64,000 nucleotides of DNA, from NCBI GenBank assembly GCA_040390125.1, contig JAZJYZ010000001.1:668210-732209 (forward strand), given 5' to 3'. The DNA comes from Patescibacteria group bacterium. Its GTDB lineage: Bacteria > Patescibacteriota > Minisyncoccia > Phycocordibacterales > Phycocordibacteraceae. Each line of letters opens with the position of its first letter. Positions within the stretch are counted from its first letter, which is position 1. The position numbers were made by a program, and so were the translations under genes. Below, piece by piece: positions 2,135-48,864 of the stretch. The notes below the pieces were generated by a model. It saw nothing but the letters and a program-made list of their open reading frames with translations. It was not told where the DNA came from and searched no databases.

Positions 2135-2980
2135 ATGAAGCGTTGGCTGATTTCAGTAAGTGTAGTAATACTCATCGCACTACTCTCAACACCTTTGCAG
2201 GTTGCCGCCGAAACAGCTTCCGCAGGGATTCCTGAGGGAAATATTTGGCTTTCGAAAAGGACTCTCACTGAAGGAGAATCGGTTCGCATATTTTTGCCTG
2301 TCTATAATGCGAGCGCAGTAAAGATTTCTGGCGATGCAGTCTTTTCTGTCGATGCGATACAAGTGGGTACTGCACATTTTGAACTTGACGTTGGAAACTC
2401 CACAATAGTATCGAGTCCGTGGATCACAACTAAAGGACCACACTCAATAACGGCACGACTTGAAGGTGCTGTTGACGCAAAAACGGGTACCGAAATCGCC
2501 GTATCAGCAAACACGGAAACACTTGCTGTTGATGTAACTGAACGACCACCTGCACCCGTATTAGTGCAAGCACTTGCGAGTGTTGCTGACGTTGCACAAA
2601 ACACTGCGGCCGCTCTGCTTCCTGTTGTCTCCTCAGTTGCTGGTGCAGTATTTGATCAAACTGAAGAAATAAGAAAAAGTGCAGTAGTTGCACTTGAAAA
2701 TTCGTTGAACGGAACAGATGCTTCATCCGATACAACCGCACCGCAGGGGTTAGTGTTAGGTGCTGAAACATATCGTGCACCTGATCTAGGAAATGGGCTC
2801 GTAGCTTCCGCAATTACTGCACCCGCATCAACAGGTTTCATGCGTATACTCCAGAGCATACTTCTCTTTCTTATAAGTTACGTATGGATATTTTATCCGC
2901 TCTTGATTTTGATTCTTCTTGCAATTTTATATGTCATAGGAAAAGGACTATCCCGCAAGAAAGCAGGGGCTAGGTTCTAG
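2135..2980 (+). CDS. Hypothetical secreted protein with C-terminal transmembrane anchor
   Basis: 281-aa ORF. Signal peptide MKRWLISVSVVILIALLSTPLQVAA. C-terminal hydrophobic helix ILLFLISYVWIFYPLLILILLAILYVI followed by a basic tail. Confidence 0.6.
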   Translation: MKRWLISVSVVILIALLSTPLQVAAETASAGIPEGNIWLSKRTLTEGESVRIFLPVYNASAVKISGDAVFSVDAIQVGTAHFELDVGNSTIVSSPWITTKGPHSITARLEGAVDAKTGTEIAVSANTETLAVDVTERPPAPVLVQALASVADVAQNTAAALLPVVSSVAGAVFDQTEEIRKSAVVALENSLNGTDASSDTTAPQGLVLGAETYRAPDLGNGLVASAITAPASTGFMRILQSILLFLISYVWIFYPLLILILLAILYVIGKGLSRKKAGARF

Positions 2981-3053: not shown

Positions 3054-3869
3054 TCAGAGGAGCATCAATATCGCTACAGCAAGTAAAACCCGATACACCG
3101 CAAACACATACAAGGGGTGTGTGCGGAGGAACTGCAGGAGGAAGTGGATCGCAAGAAGACCGCTCACAAATGCAACAACACTCCCAAGAATGAGCGGAGT
3201 GCCAATGACAGTAAATGCTCCCGCTCCATTAAGTTCAAAAAATTTCTTTAGCCCCGCTCCAAGAATAATAGGCACAGAAAGTAAAAAGCCAAAGCGTGCA
3301 GATGCTTCTCGTGAAAGCCCCAAAAACAGCCCACCTGAAATTGTCATGCCGGAACGGCTCATCCCCGGAATGAGTGCAAGGGATTGAAAAAATCCTATAC
3401 AGAGACTTCTCCAAAAACCTACCGCCTCTACACCAAGAGAAGTTTCCTTACGTTTTGACACATACTCCGCTACAAGAAAGACAACTGAGCCTGCAATGAG
3501 TGCATAGGCTACAAGATGAGTATTTCGAAACAATGTGTCCATGGTCTTCTCCAAAAAAAGACCAAAAATAATGGCGGGTATTGTGCCCACAATAAGTGCA
3601 ATGAGGAGTCGTGAGCTTTCTGCTTCTACAGGTTTCCCCAGCACCCTTTTAAGTGCAGTGTGTGCCAGATTCAATAAATCCTTAAAAAAGTACACTACAA
3701 CGGCAAGAATAGTGCCGAACTGCAACACCGCATCGACAGCAAGGCCATTTGCAGTGTTTGCACCAAGAATCTCCCGTACCACAATGAGATGCCCAGAAGA
3801 AGAAATTGGAAGAAACTCCGTAATTCCTTGCACGAGTCCCAAAATGCTAAAAATAAGCCAATCTCCCAT
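3054..3869 (-). CDS. uppP: Undecaprenyl-diphosphatase (UppP/BacA)
   Basis: 271 aa, multi-TM. Motifs GITEFLPISSSGHL and PGMSRSGMTISGG are characteristic of BacA/UppP. Confidence 0.9.
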   Translation of the reverse strand: MGDWLIFSILGLVQGITEFLPISSSGHLIVVREILGANTANGLAVDAVLQFGTILAVVVYFFKDLLNLAHTALKRVLGKPVEAESSRLLIALIVGTIPAIIFGLFLEKTMDTLFRNTHLVAYALIAGSVVFLVAEYVSKRKETSLGVEAVGFWRSLCIGFFQSLALIPGMSRSGMTISGGLFLGLSREASARFGFLLSVPIILGAGLKKFFELNGAGAFTVIGTPLILGSVVAFVSGLLAIHFLLQFLRTHPLYVFAVYRVLLAVAILMLL

Positions 3870-6042: not shown

Positions 6043-7323
6043 TTAGTATGAGCGGAGTCTTTTGGCTTTGCCGTGAGTGCGGATTTTTTCAAGTGCTTTT
6101 GCTTCAATCTGACGAATACGCTCACGAGTAACACCAAACTCCTGCCCTACCTCTTCGAGTGTGTGGTAAATGCCATCTTCAAGCCCATGACGCATTGCCA
6201 AAATTTTTCTTTCTTTTGGTGTGAGATCGCCCAAGATTTCGTGAAGCTGTTCAACAAGAATGCGATGAGCTGTTTCTTGGTCAGGCGTTGGGAGTGAATG
6301 GTCTGCAACGAAGTCACCACGAGCTGAGGCATCGTCATCATCCGATGAGCTGATAGGTGCCTCCAAAGAGAGTGTCTCTTGGTTGATTTGTTCAATCTGG
6401 TAGACCTTCTCAACATCGACACCCATCTCTGCAGAAATTTCTTCGGGCATCGGATCACGACCGAGGTCTTGTTCGAGTCTTCGTACTATTTGCTTGTACT
6501 TGGCAATCGTCTCCACCATGTGCACCGGAATACGAATAGTGCGTGATTGGTCCGCAAGAGCACGAGTGATGGCTTGTCGAATCCACCACGTAGCGTACGT
6601 AGAAAACTTATATCCTTTAGTGTAATCAAATTTATCAACGGCCTTGAAGAGTCCTAAGTTCCCTTCCTGAATGAGGTCGAGGAGTGACAAGTCCGATGAA
6701 CGTGATGCATATTTCTTTGCAATGGAAACAACGAGGCGAAGGTTTGCTCTCGCAAGAAGATTCTTTGCTTCTTCATCTCCTTCGGTGATACGTTTTGCAA
6801 GAGCTCGCTCTTCAGGACCCGTGAGGAGTGGATACTGGCCGATCTCACGCAAATACATTTGAATAGAGTCGTGTGCCGAGCCCTCGCCCCTGTAGCCCCC
6901 ACGCATTACCACCTCATCAGGCACTTCTTCGAGCATTCCACCTGACTCCAAGACATCAACACCTGATGTTGAAAGTCGCTCGTAGAGCTCTTCAAGAAAG
7001 ACTACATTCTCTTCGATCGTTGGAAATTCCTTTAAAATTTCATTGTACGTAACATAGCCACGCTCCTTACCTTTACCAATCAGACGTGAAGCTTTTGTCT
7101 CAAGAAGAGCACGCTTCTTACCAGAGAGTGCTTTAGCGGGCTTAGGTGCCTTTACCTTTGCTACCTTCTTTGCTGGTGCTTTCCCTTTGCGGAGCGGGAC
7201 CTTCTTTGCAGGCTTACTCTTTTGCTTCCCTGCTGGACGCACGACCTTCTTCACCACCTTTTTGCGGGGAGACGCCTTAACTGGCTTTTTTACCTTTTTG
7301 GATGTTGTTTTTTTCTTTGCCAT
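6043..7323 (-). CDS. rpoD: RNA polymerase sigma-70 factor RpoD with Lys-rich N-terminal tail
   Basis: Regions 2-4 are conserved ([57 protein letters not shown]). The N-terminal ~75 residues are KKxK/AKK repeats instead of an acidic region 1.1. Confidence 0.95.
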
Positions 7324-35224: not shown

Positions 35225-38200
35225 ATGTCCTCCTTCTCCCACCTCTCCGCACACAGTCACTACAGCCTGCTTGACGGCATAGTTCAAATAGATGCACTCG
35301 TAAACACTGCGATGTTCTACGGGATGCCCGCACTTGCACTCACTGACCGCAATAACTTGTATGGTGCAATTGAGTTTTACAAAGCATGCAAAAAAGCTGG
35401 CATCAAACCAATCCTCGGTATCGACGCAGACATAGCTATTGCCGACACTGAAGACCACATAATTTTTCTTGCAGAAACAAACGAAGGGTATCAGCATCTT
35501 TTAAAACTAATCTCACACGCATATCTAGACCTGTCTAAAGAGACGGGAGGAAACGCTCTACCAAAAGTAACCGCCGAACATATACAAAAATATGGCAAAG
35601 GCTTAATTGCACTCATTCCCGACACTGCACTGGTGCGCAGAAATTCCGAAGCCCTTGTAGAGGTGCTCCGGCAGGGCCTCGGAAAAGAAAGTGTGTATGC
35701 CCGACTTGGCTGGAATGGTGGCAGGGATCAACAACTTCGCATTGCGGGAATTGCAAAAGCGCTCGAACTCAATCTCGTTGCATCAGACGACACGTATTAT
35801 TTAAAACCTGAAGATAGGCAAGCACGTGACATCGTACGCAGGATTGCCGTTCCTGGAGTTCCGGCAGACCCTTCTGACCTGGCTTTTTGTAGTGTAGAAA
35901 CCGCCACTGAGCGTTACCGTGATTTTCCAGAAGCACTCGCAAACGTAGAGGCAATCGCCAATCGTACTGACGTAACGTTGAACTTAGGCTCATGGGTATT
36001 TCCTCACTTTCCTCTCCCCAAAGGAGCCAGTTATGAAACTGAGCTGAAAAACGCCATAGAAAAAGGACTCACGGAAAGAAAAATGGAAGCGACGAGCGAA
36101 GTACGAGAACGCATCGACTACGAGCTTTCAATCATCAGTACCAAAGGTTTTGCCCCGTACTTCCTTACGGTGGCAGACCTACTTGCATACGCCAGAAATC
36201 ACGGAATACTCACGACGACCCGTGGTTCTGCGGCAGGATCTCTCGTTTCATATTTGACCGGCATTACGAACGTAGACCCAATGGCGTATCGCCTCCCCTT
36301 CGAGCGATTCTTGAATCCCGAACGTCCTTCAGCACCCGACATCGACATGGACTTTGCCGACAATCGCCGAGACGAAATGATTCAGTACGCCAAAGAAAAG
36401 TATGGTGAAGAGTGTGTGGCACAAATAGGAACCTTCGGAACCATGATGGCACGTGCGGCGGTCAGAGATGTCGCACGTGCATTAGGGTATCCGTATGGCG
36501 TGGGCGACAGAATCGCAAAGTTAATTCCCATGGGGTCACAAGGATTTCCCATGACCATTAAGAAAGCCCTCGAGATAGAAGATGAACTGAAAAAACTATA
36601 CCAATCAGATGAGGACGCTGAAATCATCATCGACACAGCAAAACAAATAGAAGGAAATGCCCGACATATTTCCATCCACGCAGCAGGCATCGTCATCGCA
36701 CCCACCGCAGTGTCTGACTTCGTGCCAGTGCAGTTTGAACCCTCCGGCAGTGCAATCATTACGCAGTACGATATGCATGAAGTTGAAGATGCAGGACTTT
36801 TGAAATTCGATTTCCTTGGACTTACTAACCTCTCCATTCTTGGAGACTCCGTTGAAAGAGTCATCGCAAGAAAGGGCGAACGAGTGGACATTGAAAACAT
36901 CCCACTCGATGACAAGAAAACATTTGCAATGCTCGCCCGAGGCGAAACTGGTGGCGTGTTCCAGCTCGGAGGCTCCGGCATGACACATTATCTGAAAAGC
37001 CTAAAACCATCATCTATTCACGACATCAATGCCATGGTGGCTCTGTACCGCCCAGGACCAATGGAATCAATTCCGGAGTACATTGAACGCAAACACAACC
37101 CCGCTCTCGTAACATATTTGGATCCACGAATGAAAGATATATTGGACCGCTCGTACGGCATCATCACCTATCAGGACGACGTGCTTTTAATAGCAATCAC
37201 CTTGGCCGGCTATTCATGGCTTGAGGCTGATCAGCTACGAAAAGCTATGGGCAAAAAAATTCCCGCAGAAATGGAGGCACAAAAAGAGAAGTTTATTCAG
37301 GGTTGCTTGGAGCACGGAAAATTGCAAAAAACAAAAGCTGAAAGTTTGTGGAAACTCATTGAACCGTTTGCCGCATACGGCTTCAACAAAGGACACGCCG
37401 CCTCGTACGGAAAAGTCGCCTATCAGACGGCATACATGAAGGCCAACCACACGGAAGACTACATGGCAGCACTTCTCTCGGCAGACTCAGGGAATGTCGA
37501 GCGCATTGCAGACGATGTAGCAGAATGTGAGCGTATTGGCATCCGGGTTCTTCCGCCCGACATCAACGAATCATTTGAATCGTTCACTGTCATTGCAGGA
37601 GGGATGATCCGATTCGGACTCTCCACCATAAAAAACTTCGGTGAGGGAGCATCAAAGGCAGTAATCGAAGAGCGCTACAGGGGTGGAAAATTCACTTCCA
37701 TAGGCGACGTGCTTTCCCGCTTGCCGGGAAGCATCTTGAACCGACGTGCCCTGGAGTCACTCATAAAATGCGGTGTATTCGATGCGTTCAATAATCGTGG
37801 CATTCTCTTGGGCAACATTGAAAAACTACTTTTGTTTGCAAAAGATGCGGGCGCAACTTCTGCAGGACAGGACTCTTTGTTTGGAGCTATGCCTGCGACT
37901 ACTAATATCGCACTGAATCCCGCTCCGGCACTCTCACAAATTGAGATGCTGAATTCTGAAAAAGAACTTTTAGGTGTGTATGTTTCAGGACATCCGCTCG
38001 ACCAATTTAAAGTGGAGCTTGCGAAATATCCTCACTCAATTAAATTCGCACGTGCCGAAGAGAGAAACGGCTACCCCCTGGTCGTGTGTGGTGTCATTGA
38101 AAGCATAAAAACAATTCTTACAAAGAAGGGCGACAAAATGGCATTCATCACCATCACTGACAAAGATGGCTTCATAGAAACAGTTGCCTTCCCTGAGGTC

Positions 38201-38317
38201 TACAAAACGAACGCCAGCGTGATAACTGAAGGAACCTGCGTTCTCTTCAAGGGCAAGCTTTCAAAACGAAATGGCGAACCATCGATTTTGATTGAGAAAG
38301 TCAAAGAGCTCAAGTAG
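35225..38317 (+). CDS. dnaE: DNA polymerase III alpha subunit, compact 1030-aa form
   Basis: PHP domain HLSAHSHYSLLDG. Polymerase core (palm/fingers) recognisable. Shorter than the ~1160-aa E. coli DnaE. Confidence 0.9.
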   Translation: MSSFSHLSAHSHYSLLDGIVQIDALVNTAMFYGMPALALTDRNNLYGAIEFYKACKKAGIKPILGIDADIAIADTEDHIIFLAETNEGYQHLLKLISHAYLDLSKETGGNALPKVTAEHIQKYGKGLIALIPDTALVRRNSEALVEVLRQGLGKESVYARLGWNGGRDQQLRIAGIAKALELNLVASDDTYYLKPEDRQARDIVRRIAVPGVPADPSDLAFCSVETATERYRDFPEALANVEAIANRTDVTLNLGSWVFPHFPLPKGASYETELKNAIEKGLTERKMEATSEVRERIDYELSIISTKGFAPYFLTVADLLAYARNHGILTTTRGSAAGSLVSYLTGITNVDPMAYRLPFERFLNPERPSAPDIDMDFADNRRDEMIQYAKEKYGEECVAQIGTFGTMMARAAVRDVARALGYPYGVGDRIAKLIPMGSQGFPMTIKKALEIEDELKKLYQSDEDAEIIIDTAKQIEGNARHISIHAAGIVIAPTAVSDFVPVQFEPSGSAIITQYDMHEVEDAGLLKFDFLGLTNLSILGDSVERVIARKGERVDIENIPLDDKKTFAMLARGETGGVFQLGGSGMTHYLKSLKPSSIHDINAMVALYRPGPMESIPEYIERKHNPALVTYLDPRMKDILDRSYGIITYQDDVLLIAITLAGYSWLEADQLRKAMGKKIPAEMEAQKEKFIQGCLEHGKLQKTKAESLWKLIEPFAAYGFNKGHAASYGKVAYQTAYMKANHTEDYMAALLSADSGNVERIADDVAECERIGIRVLPPDINESFESFTVIAGGMIRFGLSTIKNFGEGASKAVIEERYRGGKFTSIGDVLSRLPGSILNRRALESLIKCGVFDAFNNRGILLGNIEKLLLFAKDAGATSAGQDSLFGAMPATTNIALNPAPALSQIEMLNSEKELLGVYVSGHPLDQFKVELAKYPHSIKFARAEERNGYPLVVCGVIESIKTILTKKGDKMAFITITDKDGFIETVAFPEVYKTNASVITEGTCVLFKGKLSKRNGEPSILIEKVKELK

Positions 38318-38392
38318 GTTATAGGTTTTAGGGGATAGGTTTTAGTTTTCCCGATTTTAAACTAGCACCTATAACCTAGTCCCTAGAACCTG
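38318..38392. repeat. taggtt/aacctag heptamer palindromic element between dnaE and thrS
   Basis: gttataggttttaggggataggttttag - ttttcccgattttaaac - tagcacctataacctagtccctagaacc. Confidence 0.75.
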
Positions 38393-38414
38393 CCCTCTAT
38401 GCTATATTTTCAAA

Positions 38415-40154
38415 ATGCCTGAAGAACTAGAACATAAACGCCACACTCTCGCCCACCTCATGGCATCGGCGATTATGAACCTCTGGCCTGACGCCAAGCG
38501 CACTATTGGTCCTGCCATAGACGACGGCTTCTATTTTGACTTTGAATTTTCAAATCCCCTTTCTGAAAAAGATTTTCCTAGGATTGAGAAAGAGATGCGA
38601 AAGCTTTTACCGAGTTGGAAAGCGTTTGAACGCTCTGAACTTACTCGAGACGAAGCGAAGAAAGAATACCCGGGCAACCCCTACAAGCATGAACTGATAG
38701 ACGAGTTCACTGCGGATGGCTCTAAAGTGAGTTTCTATAAATCCGGCGACTACTCTGATTTATGTCGTGGGGGACATGTGGAAAATCCGAGTACCGATAT
38801 AAAACCTGATTCGTTCAAGCTTGATCGCATTGCGGGAGCCTACTGGCGAGGTGACGAAAAGAATCCCATGCTTACTCGCATCTATGCTCTTGCATTTGAT
38901 ACAAAAGAAGAACTCGATGCGTACTTAGTGCGACGTGAAGAAGCAAAAAAACGAGACCACCGCAAAATTGCACGTGAGCAGGGGCTCCTTGTCTTTTCCG
39001 ATCTCGTTGGTTCGGGAATGCCACTGTTCACCCCGAAAGGAAATATCATCCGCTCTGAGATAATCAATCTTTCACGTGAGCTCAATAATGAACTTGGGTT
39101 TGGCGAGGTACACACGCCAAACATGAACAAGGGCGAGCTATTCAAAATTTCTGGTCACTACGACAAATACAAGGAGGACATGCTCCAAGTGGAGTCTCAG
39201 TATGTCGAAGATGAGATGTTCCTAAAGCCCATGAACTGCCCTCAACATACACAGATTTATGCATCACAGCCAAGGTCCTACCGTGACTTACCTGTCCGCT
39301 TCAGTGACTTTGCCGTCCTCTACCGTGATGAGCGTCCAGGAGAGCTTTCAGGATTAACCCGGCTTCGAGCATTCTCACAAGACGATGGACATATTTTCTG
39401 TAGAGAAGATCAGGTTGAAGAAGAAATATCCAACGTCCTCAATGCCATTCAGAAAATCCTGAAAATCTACAAAATTGATTATTGGATGCGACTCTCGCTC
39501 CGTGATCCGGCAAAGAAAGAAAAATACCTCGGAGGCGACGAAGTGTGGGAAAAATCAGAGCCAATCATGCGAACACTCCTAGAGAAAAAGAATATCGACT
39601 TTAAGGAAGTGGTTGGCGACGCTGCATTTTACGGTCCCAAAATAGACATCATGGCAGTTGATGCCATTGGTCGTGAGTGGCAAATTTCAACCATCCAGCT
39701 CGACTTCAACATGCCAGGACGCTTCGAGCTTGCCTACATGGACAAGGATGGCGTTGAAAAAACTCCCGTCATGATTCACCGAGCACTTATTGGTTCTCCT
39801 GATAGATTCATGGGAGTACTCATTGAGCATTACGCAGGCGCCTTTCCCCTCTGGCTCTCGCCTGTGCAAGTAAAGGTCCTTCCTGTTTCTGAAAAGCATA
39901 ACGACTACGGAAAAAAAGTTCTTGCTGAACTGAAAGCAGCAAACATCCGTGCAGAAATTGATGACGCAAACGAGTCGTTAGGTAAAAAAATACGAAACGC
40001 AAAAAAAGAAAAAACTCCCTATCTGTTTGTGGTGGGAGATAAAGAAGTTGAGGCAGGCACTGTGTCTGTAGAAAACCGCACGGCTTCAGAAGGAGCAATG
40101 GCAACTACTGACATTCTCACTCGTATTTCAAAAGAAATTACTGAACGCTCTTAA
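38415..40154 (+). CDS. thrS: Threonine--tRNA ligase lacking the N-terminal TGS domain
   Basis: Begins in the editing-domain region HTLAHLMASAIMNLWPDAKRTIGPAIDDGFYFDFEF. Class-II motifs, including HRALIGSPDRFMGVLIEHYAG, and an anticodon-binding C-terminus. Confidence 0.9.
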   Translation: MPEELEHKRHTLAHLMASAIMNLWPDAKRTIGPAIDDGFYFDFEFSNPLSEKDFPRIEKEMRKLLPSWKAFERSELTRDEAKKEYPGNPYKHELIDEFTADGSKVSFYKSGDYSDLCRGGHVENPSTDIKPDSFKLDRIAGAYWRGDEKNPMLTRIYALAFDTKEELDAYLVRREEAKKRDHRKIAREQGLLVFSDLVGSGMPLFTPKGNIIRSEIINLSRELNNELGFGEVHTPNMNKGELFKISGHYDKYKEDMLQVESQYVEDEMFLKPMNCPQHTQIYASQPRSYRDLPVRFSDFAVLYRDERPGELSGLTRLRAFSQDDGHIFCREDQVEEEISNVLNAIQKILKIYKIDYWMRLSLRDPAKKEKYLGGDEVWEKSEPIMRTLLEKKNIDFKEVVGDAAFYGPKIDIMAVDAIGREWQISTIQLDFNMPGRFELAYMDKDGVEKTPVMIHRALIGSPDRFMGVLIEHYAGAFPLWLSPVQVKVLPVSEKHNDYGKKVLAELKAANIRAEIDDANESLGKKIRNAKKEKTPYLFVVGDKEVEAGTVSVENRTASEGAMATTDILTRISKEITERS

Positions 40155-40189
40155 TCGACTAATCAGAGTTAACTGCCAAAATCACCCCT

Positions 40190-40216
40190 CATGTAGGACA
40201 TACGATGTCCTACATG
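40190..40216 (+). terminator. Perfect 12-bp hairpin catgtaggacat-acg-atgtcctacatg downstream of thrS
   Basis: Exact stem 36 nt after the thrS stop. No U-tract. Immediately followed by the 24-bp palindrome at 40229. Confidence 0.4.
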
Positions 40217-40228
40217 GTTATCTTCGTT

Positions 40229-40252
40229 TGTGCAACCTCCGGAGGTTGCACA
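40229..40252. repeat. 24-bp palindrome tgtgcaacctccggaggttgcaca (second copy)
   Basis: Identical to 25003-25026. Confidence 0.85.
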
Positions 40253-40450
40253 AACACAAATATTACTTGGGGGAATGAGTCGCAGTTTGCTGCAGAAATG
40301 CTTCTACCACGCCCTTTGGAGCTCGTCGCATCAAGTCCAGGAAGAACTTATACCTACTACCTCCCCTGCCAAGACCCCACCAGACATTTACGAGTTGCTC
40401 TAGGGTTACCGGTTTTAAAGCCTCTCGATGTTCCATATTTTTGATGTATT

Positions 40451-40474
40451 TGTGCTACACCCGGGTGTAGCACA
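40451..40474. repeat. 24-bp palindrome tgtgctacacccgggtgtagcaca (second copy)
   Basis: Identical to 31836-31859. Lies 60 nt past the 3' end of the adhesin gene. Confidence 0.85.
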
Positions 40475-40533
40475 AAATTGGTGGGATTAATCTGCGGGCT
40501 GTCACACCTTCCCTTCTCATACGTTTTAGTTAA

Positions 40534-43500
40534 TTATCCTACCACCTCAAATGCTTGAGCAAGAGCGAGCTTCACACCAGTGAATGGTGAAGCATACACG
40601 GTGTCGAGGGAGTGCGTGAAGATATTCACGAGACTCGCAAGCTGTTCATCCGAAAGGTGTGATGCTGAATCTGCAAGAGTCGTGTCTACTGCAGGACGAT
40701 TGTCTTTACGAGTACGGTACAAGGTGTCGAGTACAGTTGCAGTGGAGGTTAGAAGTGCAGTTGGGCTCACTCCATCGTGTTCGAATGAACGAATGATACC
40801 GAAAGCGACGTCACGATTTCCTAGTGCGACAGCACCTGCGAATGCAGAAGCTCCGGCGGTGTCGATGGTCTTTGTTGGTGTATCTACCGAAATAGGAGCT
40901 GGTTCAGAAGGTGCGAATGCAGATGCAGTTGGAGGAACTATTGGTGTTCCCTTCTCGGTACCAGCAAGATCCGCAAAACGATCAGTGGTGAGCATAACCC
41001 AGCCATTTTCACGAGGTACGGTGCGAACTGCTTCGTTCAAAATGTTACCGAAGATACGGAGTGCCTCAACTCTGTCTGGAGATGCCGAGACTGCAAGCGT
41101 TACTGCTTCTGGCGACATGAGTACGCCAGCTGCGTGTGCACGAGATTCAATGACATCACGAACATCAGGAACTCCGTCTACTGCTGGAGTCTTTGCTTGA
41201 GGAGGAGGAACAACAACAGCAGCAGTAAACGCAGGTACTACAGGAGCCACTGGTGCTCTGTATGCTACAGGTGCTGGGGCAACACTCTCTGTAAATGCAG
41301 GTGCAGTCTGATGCACTGGTATATCAGCATTTGGATATGGAGTTCCATAAAGAGCTTCACGTTGATGTTCATGTACTTCAGCAGGACTTTGATGTTGCGG
41401 AATAAAGCGTCCACCTGCATATCCGAGAATGTAACGAATACCTCCCTTACCTGCCACGAAGTACGCAGCGAAAGCTGAGAGGAGTCCTATGGCAAGCCAG
41501 AAAAGAATAGTGAGCGCAGGTCCTGCATCAAAGCCCGTGTACGGAATTTGTGAGAGCGAAACGAACGCCAATGGTTGGTTAGTGAGTTGTTTGAACATGA
41601 CTACGTTTGGCTGGTCTAACCCGCCACCACAACTCGTTGTACATCCCGAAGGCGGAGTAACAATGACAGTTCGCTGACATGACGCAGTGCCGTTCGGACC
41701 TGTGAATGTTCCTGTGTAGGTCGTATCGCTCGGTGGGAACATATCAATGGAGCCTCCCGCAACCGGACTTACTGAACCAATACCTCCAGTGATAGAACCA
41801 CTCGTGGCGTTAGCACTCGTCCACGACACAGTGACACTCTCTCCGGTTCGTATTGAAGAACGAGAAACTGTAATCGTACATGCAGGCCCTGGTGTCGTTA
41901 CTGTAATAGTAGTCTGGCACGTAGCGGTAGCACCAAACCCACTGGTGACAGTCATGGTGTAAGTAATCGTGTTTGAAATCGAAACTGCAGTAGCGCCAGA
42001 AATTACCGGAGTCACTGCGCCAACGCCATGATCAATGGATGCAGATACAGCATTCGTGGTTGTCCACGAGAGCGCTGAAGCATCTCCCGCATTCACGGAG
42101 GAAGGTGTTGCACTCAAAACACATGCAGGAGTTGCAGGTGGTGTTACGACAATCGTCTGCTGACACGTTACCGTGCCACCAGCGCCCGTTGCGGTAAGAG
42201 CATAGGTTGTTGAAGAAGCTGGTGAGACTGATCGGGAACCGTTTGCAGTAACAGAGCCAATACCTTGAGTTATATTCACAGAGCTCGCATTCGTGGTAGT
42301 CCACGTTAACGTGGAGGATCCACCCGAAGAAATAGTTGAGGGCGTTGCATCAAGAGTACAGGTTGGTGCTGGGTTTGGTGTCACGGTAACACTCACACCA
42401 CAAAGCACTGAGCCGCCAGGACCCGTTGCGGTGAGGCTGTACGTATGTGTGCCGTTGCCAAGAGGTGGAGTGAAATCGAAGGAACCAGAAAGACCTTGAG
42501 GGACTGGAATCGTTGGCGACGCAGTAGTAGGAGTAACAACAACCGCAGTTGCGTTTGTAGTGCTCCAGCTTATTTGATTTTTTGAAAGATCAATAGAGCA
42601 GACAGGCGCAGGAGACACCGTCACGGTAATTATTTTTTGGCACGTCACCGTGCCACCAGGACCCGTTGCGGTAAGAGTGTACGTAGTGGTAACCGTTGGA
42701 TGCACGCTTGCGGAGCCATTAGTAGCTACTGCACCAATTCCTGGAACAATACTTACTGATGTTGCGTACGCAGTCGTCCACGAAAGTGTTGCTGAATTGC
42801 CCGCAGTAATAGTTGAAACCGAAGCGGTCAAACTACACGATGGTGCAGGGTTGCTAGCAACCGTAATAGTTTTCTGACACGTCACCGTGCCACCAGCGCC
42901 CGTTGCGGTGAGGGTGTACGTAGTCGTGACGGAAGGGACGACAATAACTGAACCGTTCGCTAACGATTGCGAGCCCACACCTTGGTCGATAGAGATGGTA
43001 GATACGTTAGCGGTAGTCCACGAAAGTATCGCCGAACCTCCTGGAATAACACCAGAAGATGCAACTACCGTTGAAGGAGACGCATCAAGCGTACAGAAAG
43101 GCGCAGAAGGAGGTGGGTCAATGTGTATCGTACCCATGCAGACTACTGAGCCTCCAGCACCAGTGGCAGTGAGTGTGTACGAATGGACACCCGGTCCCAA
43201 GTCAGGATTGAAATTGAACGAACCATTAAGCCCAGGACTTGGAATGGCAGGAGAACCAGTGGTCGAAACGAGTGTCACAGAGCTTGCATGAATGGTTGTC
43301 CAGGAAATTGCACTTGGTGACAAATCAAGAATACAAACAGGTAATGGCGCAGGAATCACCGTAACACCTTGTGCACACGTAACTGTGCCTCCCGGACCCG
43401 TTGCGGTGAGTGTATACACCGTCGAGGAGTTCGGCGAAACAGAAGTCGAACCGTTTTGCGTAACACTGCCAATACCCTGATTGATGTTTACAGAAGTAAC

Positions 43501-44298
43501 ATTCGTAGTGGTCCAAGAAAGTGTTGACGAACCACCCTCATTGATTGAGGTTGGATTGGCACTCAGCGTACACGTCGGTGCAGGCTCAGGAGTAATAGTA
43601 ACGGTGACAGCACAAAGAACTGATCCACCAGGACCTGTTGCGGTTAAGTTGTATGTGTGAGTACCAGAGCCAAGAGCAGGTACAAAGTTATAAGAACCTG
43701 AAAGTCCGTGCGGAGCCGGAACAACCGGAGAGCCCGCAGTCAAAGTGTTTATAGTGACGGACGTTGCGTTTACGGTGTTCCAAATAAGTCGATCTTTTGA
43801 AAGGTCAGCAGAACATACAGGCATCGGAGATGACTCGACAACGATAGTTTTCTGGCAGGTCACGGTGCCGCTCGGTCCTGAGCCGGTGAGCGTATAAGTT
43901 GTCGTTACAGAAGGCGAAACGCTAGTGGAACCGTTCTTGGCTACAGTACCAACTCCATTATCAATGGAAACAACGGTGACTTTCTTAGTGGTCCATGAGA
44001 GCGTTGCCGACTCACCGGCAGAAATTTGACTTGGTGCACCATCAAGCTTGCATGAGGGCGGCACTCCACCGCCCCCACCGCCTCTGTCTTCCGTATTTTC
44101 ATAAGGACCGTTCTGGTAGCCCCAAAGGAAGAAGTCGACGTAGCCACAACCACCACAACCAACTCCTGCTGCTTCTGCAGTTATAGAAGTCTGATCAAAA
44201 GAAAGATTTGCAACGTCCATTGAAAACCATGCGCCAATCGAAAAAACGGCGATAATCGCTACGATGAGGAGTCCTGATTTTTTTACGATGTTTGTCAT
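40534..44298 (-). CDS. Giant surface adhesin with ~9 tandem Cys-bracketed Ig-like domains, an internal IPYTG sorting signal plus TM segment, and a 300-aa C-terminal domain
   Basis: 1254 aa. Signal/anchor MTNIVKKSGLLIVAIIAVFSIGAW. Repeated ~85-aa units PxC.L.A.PS.I..G.S.TLSWTT.N..SV.I..GIG.V..NGS.SV.P...TTYTLTATGPGGTVTCQ. Residues 918-956 read SQIPYTGFDAGPALTILFWLAIGLLSAFAAYFVAGKGGIRY. Confidence 0.8.
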   Translation of the reverse strand: MTNIVKKSGLLIVAIIAVFSIGAWFSMDVANLSFDQTSITAEAAGVGCGGCGYVDFFLWGYQNGPYENTEDRGGGGGGVPPSCKLDGAPSQISAGESATLSWTTKKVTVVSIDNGVGTVAKNGSTSVSPSVTTTYTLTGSGPSGTVTCQKTIVVESSPMPVCSADLSKDRLIWNTVNATSVTINTLTAGSPVVPAPHGLSGSYNFVPALGSGTHTYNLTATGPGGSVLCAVTVTITPEPAPTCTLSANPTSINEGGSSTLSWTTTNVTSVNINQGIGSVTQNGSTSVSPNSSTVYTLTATGPGGTVTCAQGVTVIPAPLPVCILDLSPSAISWTTIHASSVTLVSTTGSPAIPSPGLNGSFNFNPDLGPGVHSYTLTATGAGGSVVCMGTIHIDPPPSAPFCTLDASPSTVVASSGVIPGGSAILSWTTANVSTISIDQGVGSQSLANGSVIVVPSVTTTYTLTATGAGGTVTCQKTITVASNPAPSCSLTASVSTITAGNSATLSWTTAYATSVSIVPGIGAVATNGSASVHPTVTTTYTLTATGPGGTVTCQKIITVTVSPAPVCSIDLSKNQISWSTTNATAVVVTPTTASPTIPVPQGLSGSFDFTPPLGNGTHTYSLTATGPGGSVLCGVSVTVTPNPAPTCTLDATPSTISSGGSSTLTWTTTNASSVNITQGIGSVTANGSRSVSPASSTTYALTATGAGGTVTCQQTIVVTPPATPACVLSATPSSVNAGDASALSWTTTNAVSASIDHGVGAVTPVISGATAVSISNTITYTMTVTSGFGATATCQTTITVTTPGPACTITVSRSSIRTGESVTVSWTSANATSGSITGGIGSVSPVAGGSIDMFPPSDTTYTGTFTGPNGTASCQRTVIVTPPSGCTTSCGGGLDQPNVVMFKQLTNQPLAFVSLSQIPYTGFDAGPALTILFWLAIGLLSAFAAYFVAGKGGIRYILGYAGGRFIPQHQSPAEVHEHQREALYGTPYPNADIPVHQTAPAFTESVAPAPVAYRAPVAPVVPAFTAAVVVPPPQAKTPAVDGVPDVRDVIESRAHAAGVLMSPEAVTLAVSASPDRVEALRIFGNILNEAVRTVPRENGWVMLTTDRFADLAGTEKGTPIVPPTASAFAPSEPAPISVDTPTKTIDTAGASAFAGAVALGNRDVAFGIIRSFEHDGVSPTALLTSTATVLDTLYRTRKDNRPAVDTTLADSASHLSDEQLASLVNIFTHSLDTVYASPFTGVKLALAQAFEVVG

Positions 44299-44333
44299 GG
44301 TTTTTAGTTAGTATTGAAAATTGATAATTAAAT

Positions 44334-45041
44334 TTATAGCGTTTCGATGGCAATCAAGTCCGCTTTCACTTCATAACGCTTTGTCTTTTGCTTACCAAAT
44401 GAATCGCACGTAACCAGTGTGAGTGTTGGTGCACCAACACCGAGTGCAACTTCCGCATCGCCAGCATCCACATAGTCGATAGAGACAATACGGTAGCGAT
44501 ACGTAGAGTCGCTAGAGTACACAAGCACTTCATCACCTGGCCGAACATTCTGAAGTCCATTGAAAGCTTTAAACGCCTGATTTTTAACAACAGGCAGATA
44601 GCTCTGATGTCCGAAGATGAATACCGTTCCGTCCTCTCCAAGAAGTGCCGAACCTGGATAGCGAACTGCTCCATGAAGAAGTGCCGAATCCAGTGCCTCT
44701 ACTTTTGTAGATGAAGGATTACCAATTGGTGTGTCTATACCCACCTTAGGAATGACAAGACGAACCGGAGCGTTCGCAATCTTTGATACGGCCGCAACTT
44801 GCTTTGCAGACACAGTTTTAACTTCTGCTTCTTCGGCAATCGGCGCCGAAGCCTGAAACGTTACAGTGGATGCTTCTGCGATATTCGAAGTATTTGAGAT
44901 TGCACCCGGTGACTCTGGTACAAAATCAATGGCGAAGAGAACGACTGAAATCGCAAAGAACAATACCAAGAACACCGTCAAAAATTCCCACGGTCTGAGC
45001 GTTGGACGTTCAATATTCGGTAATTTCTTTTTTCCATCCAT
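44334..45041 (-). CDS. Sortase-family transpeptidase
   Basis: N-terminal TM anchor. Catalytic His in FIFGHQSYL, Cys in TLTLVTCDS (TLxTC motif) and a conserved Arg region RYRIVSID. Confidence 0.85.
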   Translation of the reverse strand: MDGKKKLPNIERPTLRPWEFLTVFLVLFFAISVVLFAIDFVPESPGAISNTSNIAEASTVTFQASAPIAEEAEVKTVSAKQVAAVSKIANAPVRLVIPKVGIDTPIGNPSSTKVEALDSALLHGAVRYPGSALLGEDGTVFIFGHQSYLPVVKNQAFKAFNGLQNVRPGDEVLVYSSDSTYRYRIVSIDYVDAGDAEVALGVGAPTLTLVTCDSFGKQKTKRYEVKADLIAIETL

Positions 45042-45147
45042 ACTTCAAAAAACTATTCCGCACCAAACTGATGGAACGTTCTGCGCAGTTTCCGTTTCAT
45101 ATAGTACATCATAGAATATGTTTTGTCAATAGTCATACAATCCACCA

Positions 45148-47586
45148 TTATTTCTTCTTCAAGTCAGCAAACACACCAATTTCAACCTCTTTTTTGATTG
45201 CACGCTGAAGGAAACCGAATATGGTATCAGGAGAACCATCTGTGGTTGTAAACTCCGCCAAGCCTTTTTCTTTACCTCCTGGGGACAACACTTCTCCATA
45301 CAAATGCAGGCGACCACCAAGCTCTCGAATCTCAGCATCATTCAAAATATCCCCAAAGACCGCCTTAAGAGCGATAAATCTCTCCCCTTCTGTCTTCCCA
45401 GCTATAAATGCTTCAGGAATTTTCGACAAAAATACTTTTTCAAGTCGACCTACATCAGCATCGCTAGTCTCTATACCTGGAATAATTCCTCGCCCAATGA
45501 AATTGAGTTGATTGTTGATAATCTCAGTGCGAGTACGTCCAATTTCGGATGTCTCTAATATACCGTTGTGATTCAAGTCAGTGCCCGGAACTAGAATATT
45601 GGGAACTCCGTCTTTTACTAGATCTGTATCAACACCCGTAAGAGGAATCACATCTCCAGGAAAAAGTATTGTTCTGTCATCCATACGATGAGCACCCGTC
45701 AAACGCAAGGTCTCACCATCTCCAGTGATAGCACCCTGGAATTGTGCTTCAGTCGTAATAGTCATCGACTTCCCGTTCACTTCAACGAACGGATGAGAAA
45801 ATTGCCCAGTTTTCAAATCAAGACAAAGATACTCCATCTTGCCAGTGAGGCTACTTGTAAACTTGATGTATACAAATTTACTCTCAATATTTGCTTGATA
45901 GTCTGGACCAAGAACGCCCTCTTTCACTGATGCTAAAACATACTCCTTCGCCTGAAGTGCACTCTCGCCAATGTAATTTATACCTACAAGATTTGAAATA
46001 CGATCCGCTGAACTACATTGATCCAAGCAATCAGCAATAATAGTGCCGCCAGACTGCATCCACCACTGATTTCTATTGACCACAAGTTCAGGTGGACTTG
46101 GAGGTGTCTCGAGCGGAGGAAGAGGTGGAGGAGGGGTTCCAGGAGGCGTAACAATTTTATCTTCGTAGAGTGAAAAATTCCAACAAGATTGCCCACCAGT
46201 AACCTTTCCTTCGGGAACATCAATGACGACATTGTGCAAAAAACCACGTGAATCAGTATAAGGAAACGAAAACTGCTCTGCTTTATACATTGGAGGAGTG
46301 CCACCTCTAAACCCAGGCTCTCTGCTTGCATCAAACACAACTCTATCTGCTCCAGCTCCGAGTACCTGTGGCACACCCTTAACCCTGAAGGCCTGTGCTT
46401 CCCACGCTCTCTTTATAAACTCTACATATTGTGGGTTCTCATTTAAGCCTTGTGCAGTCGCAGCCTTCATAAAGGCATTTCCAGCTTCAGGATTCATGCC
46501 ACCTTTGATAAGCATATTGAGTGCGTCACGTATTGAAGGTTGAGCGAACGCCTCTGCTCGAGTGCGTGCCCATGGTGCATCACCGAAGTGTGTAATAAAT
46601 TGATTTCTTCCTCCAGTTGGAACAAGTTCAGCAGCGGAGGCAGGGCCACCAAGAACGACCCGTGCACCAGTTTCAAGACCGTGCAAGGCATTATTGCCAA
46701 GCTCAGCTAAGCCTGCACGAAACTGCCAGTAACTACCTTCACCGTTGGCAATGCTCTCGGCGACTTTGCTACCCCAAGCGTTAGCAAGGTGGTCGTTAAG
46801 CAATTGATCGGAGAGGTTCGAAGAGAGATGAGCGAGAGAGTCTCCCGCAACCACAAATGTTCCGACAGAAGTCAGAACACCAGCACCCCACCGTGCGGAA
46901 AAGCGCCACAATTTTGAATTACGACGTTCTTTAAGAAGTTTGGCGTTTTCACTGACGAATTGTTCATGAGTCTTTCCTACTGCTTTTGCCTCAACTTCTT
47001 TTTTTGCTATATCAGATGCGACCCTCGAGCTCACAGTGCCAATCAACTCTTTACGCTTGAGAACTTTAGAGATCACGAATCCCGGAATAATTGATGCGAC
47101 AGCCCTGGTTCCACCTCCCACTGCTACAAACCCAACACCCCCTGCAAGACCTACGATTTTGCTTACAAGAAGACTCGTGTGCTTCCCTGCCGCTTTATCT
47201 GCTTCTGCATACAAGAATCTTTCTGCTGCCTCATTGTCAAAAGCCTGAAACAGGAAATTTCGATACACGGAAACCGAAGACCGGTACTGTGCGAGTGCTA
47301 CATCGAAATCGGCTTTGTGTTCAGGGGCAATGCTACGTCCCGTCATTTTACTGAATTTTTGTGGCACTCGATCGAATGCATCTCGAGCCTGCTTCACTCG
47401 AGCGAGAAGCGTCTCACTTATCCTTTTGAATTCTTTAACCGCCTCTTCTTTTTCAATATCGACAGAAGTCTTCTCGCGAAAAGGATTTTTCTTTTTTGCA
47501 AAACTAACCGCACTCTCAAAGCCCGCTCTCAATGAGACTGGAGGTTTGGATGGGTGTCCTTCTAAAGCGGGTGCATCAACAGACAT
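45148..47586 (-). CDS. Large hypothetical membrane protein (812 aa) with Pro-rich segment
   Basis: ATG start. Two predicted TM helices (about aa 140-175 and 235-255). PPGTPPPPLPPLETPPSPPEL tract. No family recognised. Confidence 0.55.
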   Translation of the reverse strand: MSVDAPALEGHPSKPPVSLRAGFESAVSFAKKKNPFREKTSVDIEKEEAVKEFKRISETLLARVKQARDAFDRVPQKFSKMTGRSIAPEHKADFDVALAQYRSSVSVYRNFLFQAFDNEAAERFLYAEADKAAGKHTSLLVSKIVGLAGGVGFVAVGGGTRAVASIIPGFVISKVLKRKELIGTVSSRVASDIAKKEVEAKAVGKTHEQFVSENAKLLKERRNSKLWRFSARWGAGVLTSVGTFVVAGDSLAHLSSNLSDQLLNDHLANAWGSKVAESIANGEGSYWQFRAGLAELGNNALHGLETGARVVLGGPASAAELVPTGGRNQFITHFGDAPWARTRAEAFAQPSIRDALNMLIKGGMNPEAGNAFMKAATAQGLNENPQYVEFIKRAWEAQAFRVKGVPQVLGAGADRVVFDASREPGFRGGTPPMYKAEQFSFPYTDSRGFLHNVVIDVPEGKVTGGQSCWNFSLYEDKIVTPPGTPPPPLPPLETPPSPPELVVNRNQWWMQSGGTIIADCLDQCSSADRISNLVGINYIGESALQAKEYVLASVKEGVLGPDYQANIESKFVYIKFTSSLTGKMEYLCLDLKTGQFSHPFVEVNGKSMTITTEAQFQGAITGDGETLRLTGAHRMDDRTILFPGDVIPLTGVDTDLVKDGVPNILVPGTDLNHNGILETSEIGRTRTEIINNQLNFIGRGIIPGIETSDADVGRLEKVFLSKIPEAFIAGKTEGERFIALKAVFGDILNDAEIRELGGRLHLYGEVLSPGGKEKGLAEFTTTDGSPDTIFGFLQRAIKKEVEIGVFADLKKK

Positions 47587-47781
47587 ATTTAAATTATTTA
47601 TAGAAAATCTTTAGGGAAATATCAATTTCGAATCTGACGAACAGTATCACGCTAAAATGGCTTTGTCAAGCCTCTGTAACGGTACCCTTTCATAGCCGGC
47701 TAACAAGAGTTCTCATTACGAATGAGTTAGAGCTCAAGTGAAAGCTTGACAATAGTAATCTTATATGATATACAGTGTTTT

Positions 47782-48864
47782 ATGGAAAACGATGTAAAAA
47801 AGAACCAGTCACGCTTAGGAGGAGTCGCCGTTCGTGCACTCGCTATTTTTGGCTTCCTTGCGATTATCATTGTAGGTATGTGGGGCTCTGTCCAAGTGGC
47901 ACGAGGTGTCCCTAATGCATTCTCATCACTTGCCTCGGCGGTTGCAAGCTTTACTTCAGTCTTCATTCCTGCGGGAGAGAAAATTACTCTTTCAACGGCA
48001 TCATTTACATTAAACTCAAACGAGCCTTTCACTATTTCATGGAGACACGATAAGAAAAGTCTCGACGGCTCATACACCTTCCGCTACGACTGTGCAGACG
48101 CTGTCTACTTCAACTCCCCTACTATTTCTGGTACTCCAGCGACTATTTACTGCAATACCTCTTTCAACTTTTTGAACTCAGGCAACCAGATTACGCTCAT
48201 TCCTGTCTCATCTAATAACCGCTTCGTTGACGTGCAGGTCTTCATTGACTTCACTCCAAACGGCGCTTCCCGCCCTACCGTTACCGGGCAAACCACGTTT
48301 ACTATTGTGAACAATGGCAACACAACCAGCCCAGGAACACTTGCTCCTGCAACTACTACGCCAACCACTGTTACTCCTAAGCCAGTCACCCCAACGCCAG
48401 TAACGCCTCGTCCTGTCACTCCTGGCCCTACACAAACAGGCGTCTACCCAGTCACCGGTGGAGTGGCAGTCTCTGATCCGAACGGCTACGTTGACCTTAC
48501 CGCACGCATCATTGAAGTAGGTATCGTCGACAAGACAACGGGCGTCTTTACCGCAAGCTCAACACCAACCCGTGCAAACAATCGTATTGCGGTACGCTTT
48601 GCAGTCGAGAACATCGGGACTAAGACCTCGCCAACGTTCGACTTCAATGCGGTGCTTCCAACACTCCCTTCAAACATCTTTTCAGCACCTATGCAACAGT
48701 CTCTCGCTCCCGGCGACCGCATTGAGTTCACGGTAGGGTTCGACAGCTTCAATAGCTCAAAGCCAGACGGACTCTTTGTGGTCAACATCGACCCATCAAA
48801 CCGCATCAACGAACGCAATAAGGTTAACAACATCGTGCAGTACACAATTACGACGAGACCGTAA
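47782..48864 (+). CDS. Membrane-anchored surface protein with Thr/Pro linker and C-terminal CARDB-like domain
   Basis: ATG at 47782 is preferred over the TTG at 47746. N-terminal TM AIFGFLAIIIVGMW. TPKPVTPTPVTPRPVTPGP linker. The C-terminus (DLTARIIEVGIV...ENIGTKTSPTFDFNAVLP...SLAPGDRIEFTVGF...INERNKVNN) matches the CARDB pattern. Confidence 0.65.
   Translation: MENDVKKNQSRLGGVAVRALAIFGFLAIIIVGMWGSVQVARGVPNAFSSLASAVASFTSVFIPAGEKITLSTASFTLNSNEPFTISWRHDKKSLDGSYTFRYDCADAVYFNSPTISGTPATIYCNTSFNFLNSGNQITLIPVSSNNRFVDVQVFIDFTPNGASRPTVTGQTTFTIVNNGNTTSPGTLAPATTTPTTVTPKPVTPTPVTPRPVTPGPTQTGVYPVTGGVAVSDPNGYVDLTARIIEVGIVDKTTGVFTASSTPTRANNRIAVRFAVENIGTKTSPTFDFNAVLPTLPSNIFSAPMQQSLAPGDRIEFTVGFDSFNSSKPDGLFVVNIDPSNRINERNKVNNIVQYTITTRP

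Follow-up and report, generated by a model that had tools for sequence, protein, structure and literature searches.

An internal PYTG signal in a surface protein with clamp-loader-like cytoplasmic domains is linked to a sortase gene across the Paceibacteria

Can a sorting signal that lies deep inside a protein, rather than at its C-terminus, serve a sortase encoded by the adjacent gene? This question is raised by a 64,000-nt stretch of the genome of a Patescibacteria group bacterium (contig JAZJYZ010000001.1, positions 668,210 to 732,209; hereafter the window, numbered from its first letter), in which a sortase gene on the minus strand (44334..45041, 235 aa) lies immediately upstream of a second minus-strand gene (40534..44298). 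The latter starts 35 nt downstream of the sortase stop codon and is called the PYTG gene here, after a motif in its product, a predicted surface protein. A first-pass annotation of the window had pointed out the pentapeptide IPYTG, a hydrophobic segment and the residues KGGIR within this product and had suggested that they form an internal signal for the neighboring sortase. The open reading frame (ORF) was found to be unbroken and to encode 1254 aa, and the reverse complement of 41533-41547, ATT CCG TAC ACG GGC, reads I918-P-Y-T-G922, which confirms both the coordinates and the residues of the claim. The signal had been placed about 300 aa before the C-terminus; indeed, 332 residues follow G922, including two folded cytoplasmic domains, and 299 follow KGGIR. 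An artefactual fusion of two genes is ruled out, as the same continuous ORF is present in about 80 independent genomes. The 35-nt gap between the sortase gene and the PYTG gene is AT-rich and has no terminator-like site within it.

The topology of the protein was examined along its length (all of its parts are encoded on the minus strand). A hydropathy scan of the 1254 aa identified only two strongly hydrophobic segments: an N-terminal signal or anchor at residues 8-27 (44218..44277), and a transmembrane (TM) helix at residues 927-949 (P927-A949; 41452..41520), the latter also modeled as a helix by AlphaFold2 (AF2; module residues 47-69). Between them lies the ectodomain (residues 83-880; 41659..44052), made up of about ten immunoglobulin (Ig)-like repeats of about 80 aa, each bounded by a Cys pair and none matched by a Pfam model, and this array is joined to the signal by a short Gly/Cys-rich segment and a stalk. 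The local order of the signal is ...QPLAFVSLSQ-IPYTG-FDAG-PALTILFWLAIGLLSAFAAYFVA-G-KGGIR-Y..., with IPYTG at residues 918-922 (41533..41547) and the proposed scissile bond between T921 and G922; peptide stretches around the motif that are candidate sortase substrates are LSQIPYTGFDAG, VSLSQIPYTGFDAG and QPLAFVSLSQIPYTGFDAGP. Thus, the geometry is that of a sorting signal, with xPxTG 4-5 residues outside the TM helix and basic residues past the helix.

Basic residues that flank a TM segment stay on the cytoplasmic side of the membrane (the positive-inside rule). The basic stop-transfer residues KGGIR, read from the sequence at 951-955 (41434..41448), follow the TM helix and therefore place the C-terminal part of the protein in the cytoplasm. 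This part begins with a Pro/Ala/Val-rich linker of 83 aa (residues 957-1039; 41182..41430) for which the predicted local distance difference test (pLDDT) score is below 50. The linker leads to an AAA+ lid-like domain (domain 1, residues 1040-1117; 40948..41181; pLDDT of about 90) with a conserved ESRAH...PRE(D/N)GW motif, and then to a six-helix bundle that resembles clamp-loader domain III, or collar (domain 2, residues 1142-1254; 40537..40875). Both C-terminal domains were modeled confidently by AF2 (pLDDT 90-97).

To what extent is the signal conserved in relation to the rest of the protein? Ectodomain length is very variable across orthologues (about 135 to 1800 aa, the motif standing anywhere from residue 135 to residue 1800) and the cytoplasmic part shows a mean column identity of 19%, while the PYTG signal is the most conserved element. 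A position table of 253 unique homologous segments delimits an extended conserved signal at Q908-Y946 (QPLAFVSLSQ-IPYTG-FDAGP-ALTILFW...AAY; 41461..41577), with the consensus P-L-A-[FY]-V-[YS]-L-S-[QE]-[IV]-P-Y-T-G-[FL]-[ED]-[LA]-G-P-x-x-T-x-x-[YF]-W-(5)-W-[SA]-(3)-A-Y. This signature of about 40 residues reaches into the TM helix through the positions G-P..T..[FY]W....W[SA]...AY. The X position is Tyr in 252 of the 253 segments, and the first position of the motif is I in 64% of the family, V in 30%, L in 3% and M in 2%. The L, P, T and G of the 253-segment table were fixed by the extraction pattern; invariance was shown independently by aligning 18 homologues that are 27-68% identical to the window sequence: P, Y, T and G do not vary, and neither do five residues of the flanks and the TM helix, namely two Leu, one Gly, one Trp and one Tyr. 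Rare variants do occur, namely APYTG (Ala for I/V at position 1) and PHTG (His for Tyr), in proteins P0190 and P0099, and these are the sole departures among more than 250 sequences.

The signal had initially been described as canonical, a description that holds for the pentapeptide, the hydrophobic span and the basic residues but not for C-terminal location or for recognition by curated hidden Markov models (HMMs), in place of which the extended 40-residue signature is found. The isolated 58-aa signal matched no curated anchor HMM (PF00746 and the NCBIfam LPXTG models), even at E<=1 for Pfam and E<=10 for NCBIfam, and no Pfam or NCBIfam family rose above threshold with the full protein, the isolated signal or the cytoplasmic part. 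A relaxed scan of all six-frame ORFs in the window for LPXTG-like motifs followed by a hydrophobic stretch gave six matches, among which only IPYTG is a true xPxTG in a credible gene. There is also a second conserved P[FY]TG (SPFTGVKLALAQAF) in the PYTG protein itself, at residues 1238-1241 (window 40576-40587, minus strand), 11-13 residues from the C-terminus in most close homologues. Its position within the confidently helical cytoplasmic collar domain, with no TM segment after it, rules it out as a real signal, and it is probably a coincidental likeness to the sortase motif.

Homologues were collected in several ways. A search with residues 881-1254 as the query found 20 of them. An earlier word-indexed search with the 58-column signal alignment had returned 342 candidates, none of which was scored, probably a limitation of short profiles; an exhaustive HMMER scan of the 58-column signal profile over 1.84 billion representatives was used instead, and it yielded 1054 cluster representatives at E<=1e-3 and 311 at E<=1e-10. 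Among the best 150 signal-profile matches, the signal stands about 250-350 residues from the C-terminus wherever the protein is complete. In complete homologues, drawn from 85 loci and about 200 database proteins, the motif has 170-466 residues after it, and none of roughly 250 complete homologues examined ends just past the TM helix; a few shorter database entries, with 50-160 residues after the motif, look like fragmentary or truncated gene calls. In addition, a scan of GTDB species-representative genomes gave 374 pattern matches; 279 of these proved to be relatives, and the loci of 80 were retrieved. The labels on the fetched loci are Kaiser-, Nomura-, Taylor- and Campbellbacteria, generic Paceibacterota and Patescibacteria, and ‘Saccharibacteria’, the last of these probably a mislabeling. 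Closed genomes with the module include CP174359.1, CP060229.1 and OY969413.1.

An uncircular test of the coupling between the motif and the rest of the protein is provided by a profile of the cytoplasmic domain alone, which is not seeded on the motif. This profile found 71 proteins. All 38 newly retrieved proteins that reach upstream of the TM helix carry xPYTG (37 with [LIVM]PYTG and one with APYTG), and the 11 newly retrieved proteins without it are N-terminally truncated gene calls that start in or after the TM helix. A cytoplasmic domain without the PYTG-TM element was never found among profile-retrieved proteins extending upstream of the TM helix, nor was any orthologue found that keeps the TM segment and has lost the motif, an outcome that the first-pass annotation had named as counting against its proposal. 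Instead, the same architecture recurs in related genomes across the Paceibacteria. These findings show that the arrangement of PYTG protein and sortase is a conserved module of the Paceibacteria, class-wide and not a peculiarity of one genome.

The adjacent gene, likewise singled out from the start, encodes a sortase by several measures. Its product matches the Pfam family Sortase (PF04203) at E=6.6e-22, with 78 bits against a cut-off of 26.6, and its score of 40.4 with TIGR01076 meets the cut-off of 39.35. The catalytic triad consists of H145, C212 (within LTLVTC, the TLxTC motif) and R222, and these His, Cys and Arg residues are kept at 97-100% in 72 sortase orthologues. A basic N-terminus is followed by a membrane anchor at about residues 17-39, an arrangement that, by the positive-inside rule, would leave the catalytic domain extracytoplasmic. 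None of the class-specific NCBIfam models (C-F, SrtD, GN) was reached (33-37 bits against cut-offs of 140-166), and the nearest PDB sequences are of class D, 2kw8 and 4d70, both weak matches at 35-37 bits. A single-sequence AF2 model of the sortase has a pLDDT of 41, with the TM helix as its sole confident part, and was not used for structural class assignment.

To what degree are the two genes linked? Sortase adjacency played no part in locus selection. An orthologous sortase is encoded upstream and on the same strand in 72 of the 85 loci, often with a gap of 0-100 nt or with an overlap. No sortase was detected in the other 13 loci, where the contig runs out within the PYTG gene or shortly upstream of it; in L077, the 2 kb upstream hold the N-terminal part of the same PYTG protein, broken by a run of N. 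As all 13 are limited by their contigs, every informative genome (72 of 72) shows the linkage. The sortase gene and the PYTG gene are separated in about 30 loci by a single variable gene or by a piece of the same gene. No other obvious substrate accompanies the sortase in the locus, although the first-pass annotation had named such a substrate, too, as counting against its proposal, and a classical C-terminal LPXTG-like substrate was found neither in the window nor in about 1.5 Mb of flanking Paceibacteria DNA. The pair is itself part of a five-gene block that is syntenic across the class (window 35225-48864; loci L001-L084) and consists, in the orientation with the sortase on the plus strand, of genes for a CARDB protein (-), the sortase (+), the PYTG protein (+), ThrRS (-) and DnaE (-), with ThrRS present in 75 loci, DnaE in 65 and CARDB in 67.

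We next consider the part of the protein that follows the signal. A C-terminal domain of about 300 aa had been predicted there and is present; the first-pass annotation had missed its cytoplasmic location, its fold similar to clamp-loader domains II and III, and the class-wide synteny of the whole arrangement. When the predicted structure was compared to the PDB with Foldseek, the top 50 matches were clamp-loader subunits only (E. coli gamma/tau, delta and delta', B. subtilis delta, and RFC), with a best E-value of 2.6e-5 over about 215 aligned columns. Domain 1 on its own also matches the AAA+ lids of RuvB, DnaA, Lon and Rubisco activase, in addition to those of clamp loaders. In the predicted fold, the lid (domain II) precedes the collar (domain III), which is the clamp-loader order. 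The AAA+ ATPase domain I is absent: the lid is preceded by the TM helix and the 83-aa Pro/Ala linker, and neither a P-loop nor a Walker B motif was found.

Sequence comparisons of the cytoplasmic part gave no significant match. PF12169 matches 3 of 75 members (best E of 0.004) and PF21694 matches 2 of 75, both below threshold; an hhalign comparison of the cytoplasmic profile to Paceibacteria DnaX (from L084, the only DnaX in the fetched loci) was colinear at E=0.08, which is not significant; and the profile had 0 matches to PDB sequences at E<=10. The link to clamp loaders is therefore one of predicted structure, and we describe the cytoplasmic part as resembling the clamp-loader lid and collar in its modeled fold, with no claim to family membership. 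Unlike clamp-loader subunits (DnaX gamma/tau, HolA delta, HolB delta' and RFC), the PYTG protein is tethered to the membrane. The lid-like domain is present in all 85 loci and both domains in 79. Four natural variants (L002, L064, L079 and L083) keep the lid-like domain without a collar-like domain, with no separate collar ORF detected nearby, which suggests that, of the cytoplasmic elements, the lid with its PREDGW motif is the one that the protein cannot do without. The gene for this protein, clamp-loader-like in its cytoplasmic domain, is in almost all genomes two genes removed from that for the alpha subunit of DNA polymerase III (DnaE), which may be a coincidence.

We propose that the N-terminal signal would direct the export of the 1254-aa protein and that the single TM helix at 927-949 would retain it in the membrane, with the Ig array outside and the last ~300 residues in the cytoplasm. 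The co-transcribed, membrane-anchored sortase would then recognize the invariant juxtamembrane LSQ[IV]PYTG, cleave between T921 and G922, and, with the ectodomain bound to Cys212 as a thioester, transfer it to a nucleophile of the envelope, which would most likely be a wall precursor and possibly another protein. A wall polymer of the peptidoglycan type is plausible because the window also encodes a secreted protein of 649 aa that has a PG_binding_1 domain (E=5e-16; 113-2062, minus strand) and contains an ORF (3054-3869, minus strand) with a UppP/BacA-type motif, GITEFLPISSSGHL, assigned to UppP by this motif only. The stub remaining in the membrane would consist of G-F-[DE]-x-G-P, the sequence-conserved TM helix, the Pro/Ala linker, and the AAA+ lid-like and collar-like domains, and would not be a disposable tail. 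It would probably oligomerize, or dock or cluster the precursor before cleavage, and/or report cleavage afterwards. Collar domains are oligomerization elements of clamp loaders, so a stub that bears such a domain could cluster or position precursors, or could signal.

The steps of this proposal differ in how firmly we hold them. That PYTG is recognized by the neighboring sortase is likely, given that the motif has the exoplasmic geometry a sortase needs, that PYTG does not vary and that a sortase with an intact triad is paired with it much as in an operon. The core idea of the first-pass annotation, an internal signal that serves the adjacent enzyme and leaves a C-terminal part of ~300 aa in the membrane, gains strong comparative support; for the subsequent cleavage at T921|G922 and transfer of the Ig ectodomain to an envelope acceptor, as the work of a dedicated sortase-substrate pair, we put the chance at slightly better than even. 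Several points weigh against the proposal. The signal goes unrecognized by every curated anchor HMM, and such strong conservation of the flanks and of the interior of the TM helix is atypical for a disposable sorting signal and would suit a role in structure or interaction as well. The sortase matches none of the class models tested, and its specificity therefore cannot be read from homology. Because the whole five-gene block is syntenic, the adjacency of the sortase is partly inherited gene order and not independent evidence, and because the 80 genome loci were seeded by a PYTG-containing pattern, the presence of the motif in them is circular. The search for substrates covered the window and the ~1.5 Mb of flanking DNA, so that substrates may exist elsewhere in the genomes. 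Finally, the cut between T and G, the nature of the acceptor and what the stub does are all inferred.

Some of these same points suit a protein that is never cut, an intact single-pass receptor or adhesin in which the PYTG-TM element is structural or serves an interaction, such as helix packing in an oligomer or docking of the CARDB protein, while the sortase acts on substrates elsewhere. Conservation that extends far beyond the pentapeptide, to G, P, T, W and Y positions in the TM helix, would be natural in such a protein, as would the absence of any match between the signal and an anchor HMM; conserved cytoplasmic domains make sense if they are still attached to the ectodomain, and an adjacency that forms part of a block with housekeeping genes could be inherited. 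However, an invariant PYTG at the exoplasmic face, encoded beside a triad-intact sortase in 72 of 72 genomes and often by an overlapping gene, would then be a remarkable coincidence, and no alternative substrate is visible in any locus. We consider it unlikely that the protein stays intact, while giving this explanation more weight than the two that follow.

Two further explanations accept the cut and differ in what it would achieve. The sortase might be a polymerase that joins T921 to a Lys of another copy, of the CARDB protein or of the variable neighbor, which would build a pilus-like Ig fiber with an uncleaved basal subunit. Pilin substrates of class C sortases typically carry [IV]PxTG rather than LPxTG, as in the IPQTG of RrgB, and the motif described here resembles theirs; moreover, the PDB sequence matches include class C sortases (8t28, 24rr and 4g1h), pilins, like this substrate, are made up of Ig-like domains, and a dedicated enzyme-substrate operon is also the layout of pilus islands. 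The best PDB matches are nevertheless of class D and not C, the class C NCBIfam model gives a score of 33 where 160 is required, inspection of the sortase sequence by eye showed no DP[FWY] lid motif, no pilin YPK motif or E-box was noticed in the substrate (no systematic search for them was made), the catalytic-domain match reaches almost to the last residue and leaves no room for a C-terminal anchor, and each locus has one PYTG protein, all of which makes polymerization improbable. Alternatively, sortase cleavage might be a site-1 event, after which the short GFDAGP stub makes the TM helix a substrate for an intramembrane protease and the lid and collar are released as a cytoplasmic signal. 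The Gly and Pro that are conserved where the helix meets the outside (G-P..T, helix-breaking residues), the folded and conserved cytoplasmic domain set off from the membrane by a long flexible linker, and the precedent of sortase remnants that carry information are all in keeping with this scheme. It is purely inferential, however, with no site-2 protease identified in the locus and no DNA-binding or sigma-like fold seen in the part that would be released, and we regard it as very improbable. A dedicated sortase-substrate pair is the best explanation of this core feature of the Paceibacteria.

Among the neighboring genes, the conserved CARDB gene may belong to the system, and its product could act as a partner or an acceptor. 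It encodes a membrane-anchored protein of 372 aa (47746..48864, plus strand; Pfam CARDB, 5.4e-7) and is transcribed divergently from the sortase gene, an orientation that is kept, with the CARDB orthologue upstream of the sortase, in 67 loci. From its N-terminal TM anchor, the protein continues through a Cys-pair domain and a Thr/Pro-rich linker to a CARDB domain at the C-terminus, in which G259, N289, G291 and L320 are invariant. Directly upstream of the sortase gene in the window lies a gene for an 812-aa protein (45148-47586, minus strand) that has a Gly-rich hydrophobic segment and a Pro-rich linker and that matches no Pfam or NCBIfam model. Homologues of this protein were found in only seven other loci, mostly those of the closest relatives of the window, and in one case between the sortase gene and the PYTG gene; in other lineages, the place between the two is taken by another variable gene, the product of which has 300-700 aa and a signal peptide. 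Both the CARDB neighbor and the 812-aa protein were ruled out as sortase substrates, as neither has an xPxTG-plus-TM element.

Two other genes of the window deserve mention. A secreted-looking 281-aa protein with a signal peptide (2135-2980, plus strand) and no significant Pfam match has a C-terminus that is loosely anchor-like, running ...TAPASTGFMRIL, about 35 hydrophobic residues and then KGLSRKKAGARF, with a P-x-S-T-G-F near to P-Y-T-G-F. At 6043-7323 on the minus strand, the window encodes a primary sigma-70 factor that comprises regions 1.1 to 4 and has an N-terminal extension unusually rich in Lys; its gene adjoins one whose product begins like DnaG primase.

How does this arrangement compare to known sortase systems? 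Like the classical LPXTG signals of sortase classes A-F, it combines xPxTG, a hydrophobic span and basic residues on the cytoplasmic side with a membrane-anchored sortase that has His, Cys, Arg and TLxTC. Unlike them, the PYTG signal is internal, has conserved flanks and a conserved TM helix, has Tyr fixed at the X position, and reaches the threshold of no anchor HMM, while its sortase reaches that of no class model. Dedicated pairs of one sortase and one substrate are known, such as the class GN ‘marine’ sortase with its target and SrtB-IsdC, in which the target ends with the sorting signal. The pair described here shares with them the linkage of one sortase to one substrate with a family-specific motif variant across a lineage, and differs in that a conserved cytoplasmic domain comes after the signal; with a TIGR03784 score of 25.9 against a cut-off of 158, it is not the GN family.

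Signals that are not C-terminal, and remnants with a function, also have counterparts. Streptococcal IgA1 protease and ZmpB/C/D have an atypical N-terminal LPXTG followed by membrane span(s) and needed for localization, as described in PMC3518915 (which cites Bender & Weiser, 2006). These proteases resemble the PYTG protein in having a motif that is not C-terminal and that precedes a membrane span, and differ from it in that their motif is near the N-terminus, with two TM segments and a large extracellular domain after it, whereas in the PYTG protein the signal comes after the large domain and is succeeded by a part that lies in the cytoplasm. The C-pep circuit of S. gordonii has a histidine kinase, part of a two-component system, that senses what sortase A leaves of its substrates in the membrane (PMC11326707), so that a membrane fragment has a function of its own after cleavage, as we propose for the PYTG stub. 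The S. gordonii remnant is an ordinary short TM segment and tail, whereas the PYTG stub would be ~330 aa long with folded domains.

Sortases are enriched in the Candidate Phyla Radiation (CPR)/Patescibacteria (PMC6744442). The literature searched describes no substrate, motif or function for CPR sortases, no PYTG motif and no internal-LPXTG variant of this type, and the PYTG arrangement is not described in Pfam or NCBIfam. What we report is a lineage-wide dedicated sortase system, a variant of Gram-positive surface anchoring in which the substrate has an internal signal and a cytoplasmic domain predicted to be clamp-loader-like. That fold is unexpected in the cytoplasmic part of a surface protein and raises the question of its binding partner. 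One highly speculative answer, to which we give the least weight of all the readings considered, is that cleavage at PYTG acts as a switch from surface to chromosome, in which, upon anchoring of the ectodomain or its engagement with a host cell, the Gly-initiated stub oligomerizes via its collar or is set free by intramembrane proteolysis, and its lid and collar join or titrate the DnaX clamp-loader complex; if true, this would couple surface attachment and host engagement of these episymbiotic ultra-small bacteria to DNA replication.

If the proposed cleavage is true, the PYTG proteins would be the first family of sortase substrates whose remnant is itself a protein that is conserved, folded and cytoplasmic, and sortase processing could yield two functional products or regulate a transmembrane link between surface and cytoplasm. 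The finding defines a candidate substrate for the sortases of the whole class Paceibacteria, with a recognition signature, LSQ[IV]PYTG, and a dedicated enzyme. Encoded in a core locus, the hypervariable Ig-repeat ectodomain of the PYTG protein makes a strong candidate for the organelle by which these uncultured episymbionts contact or adhere to their hosts.

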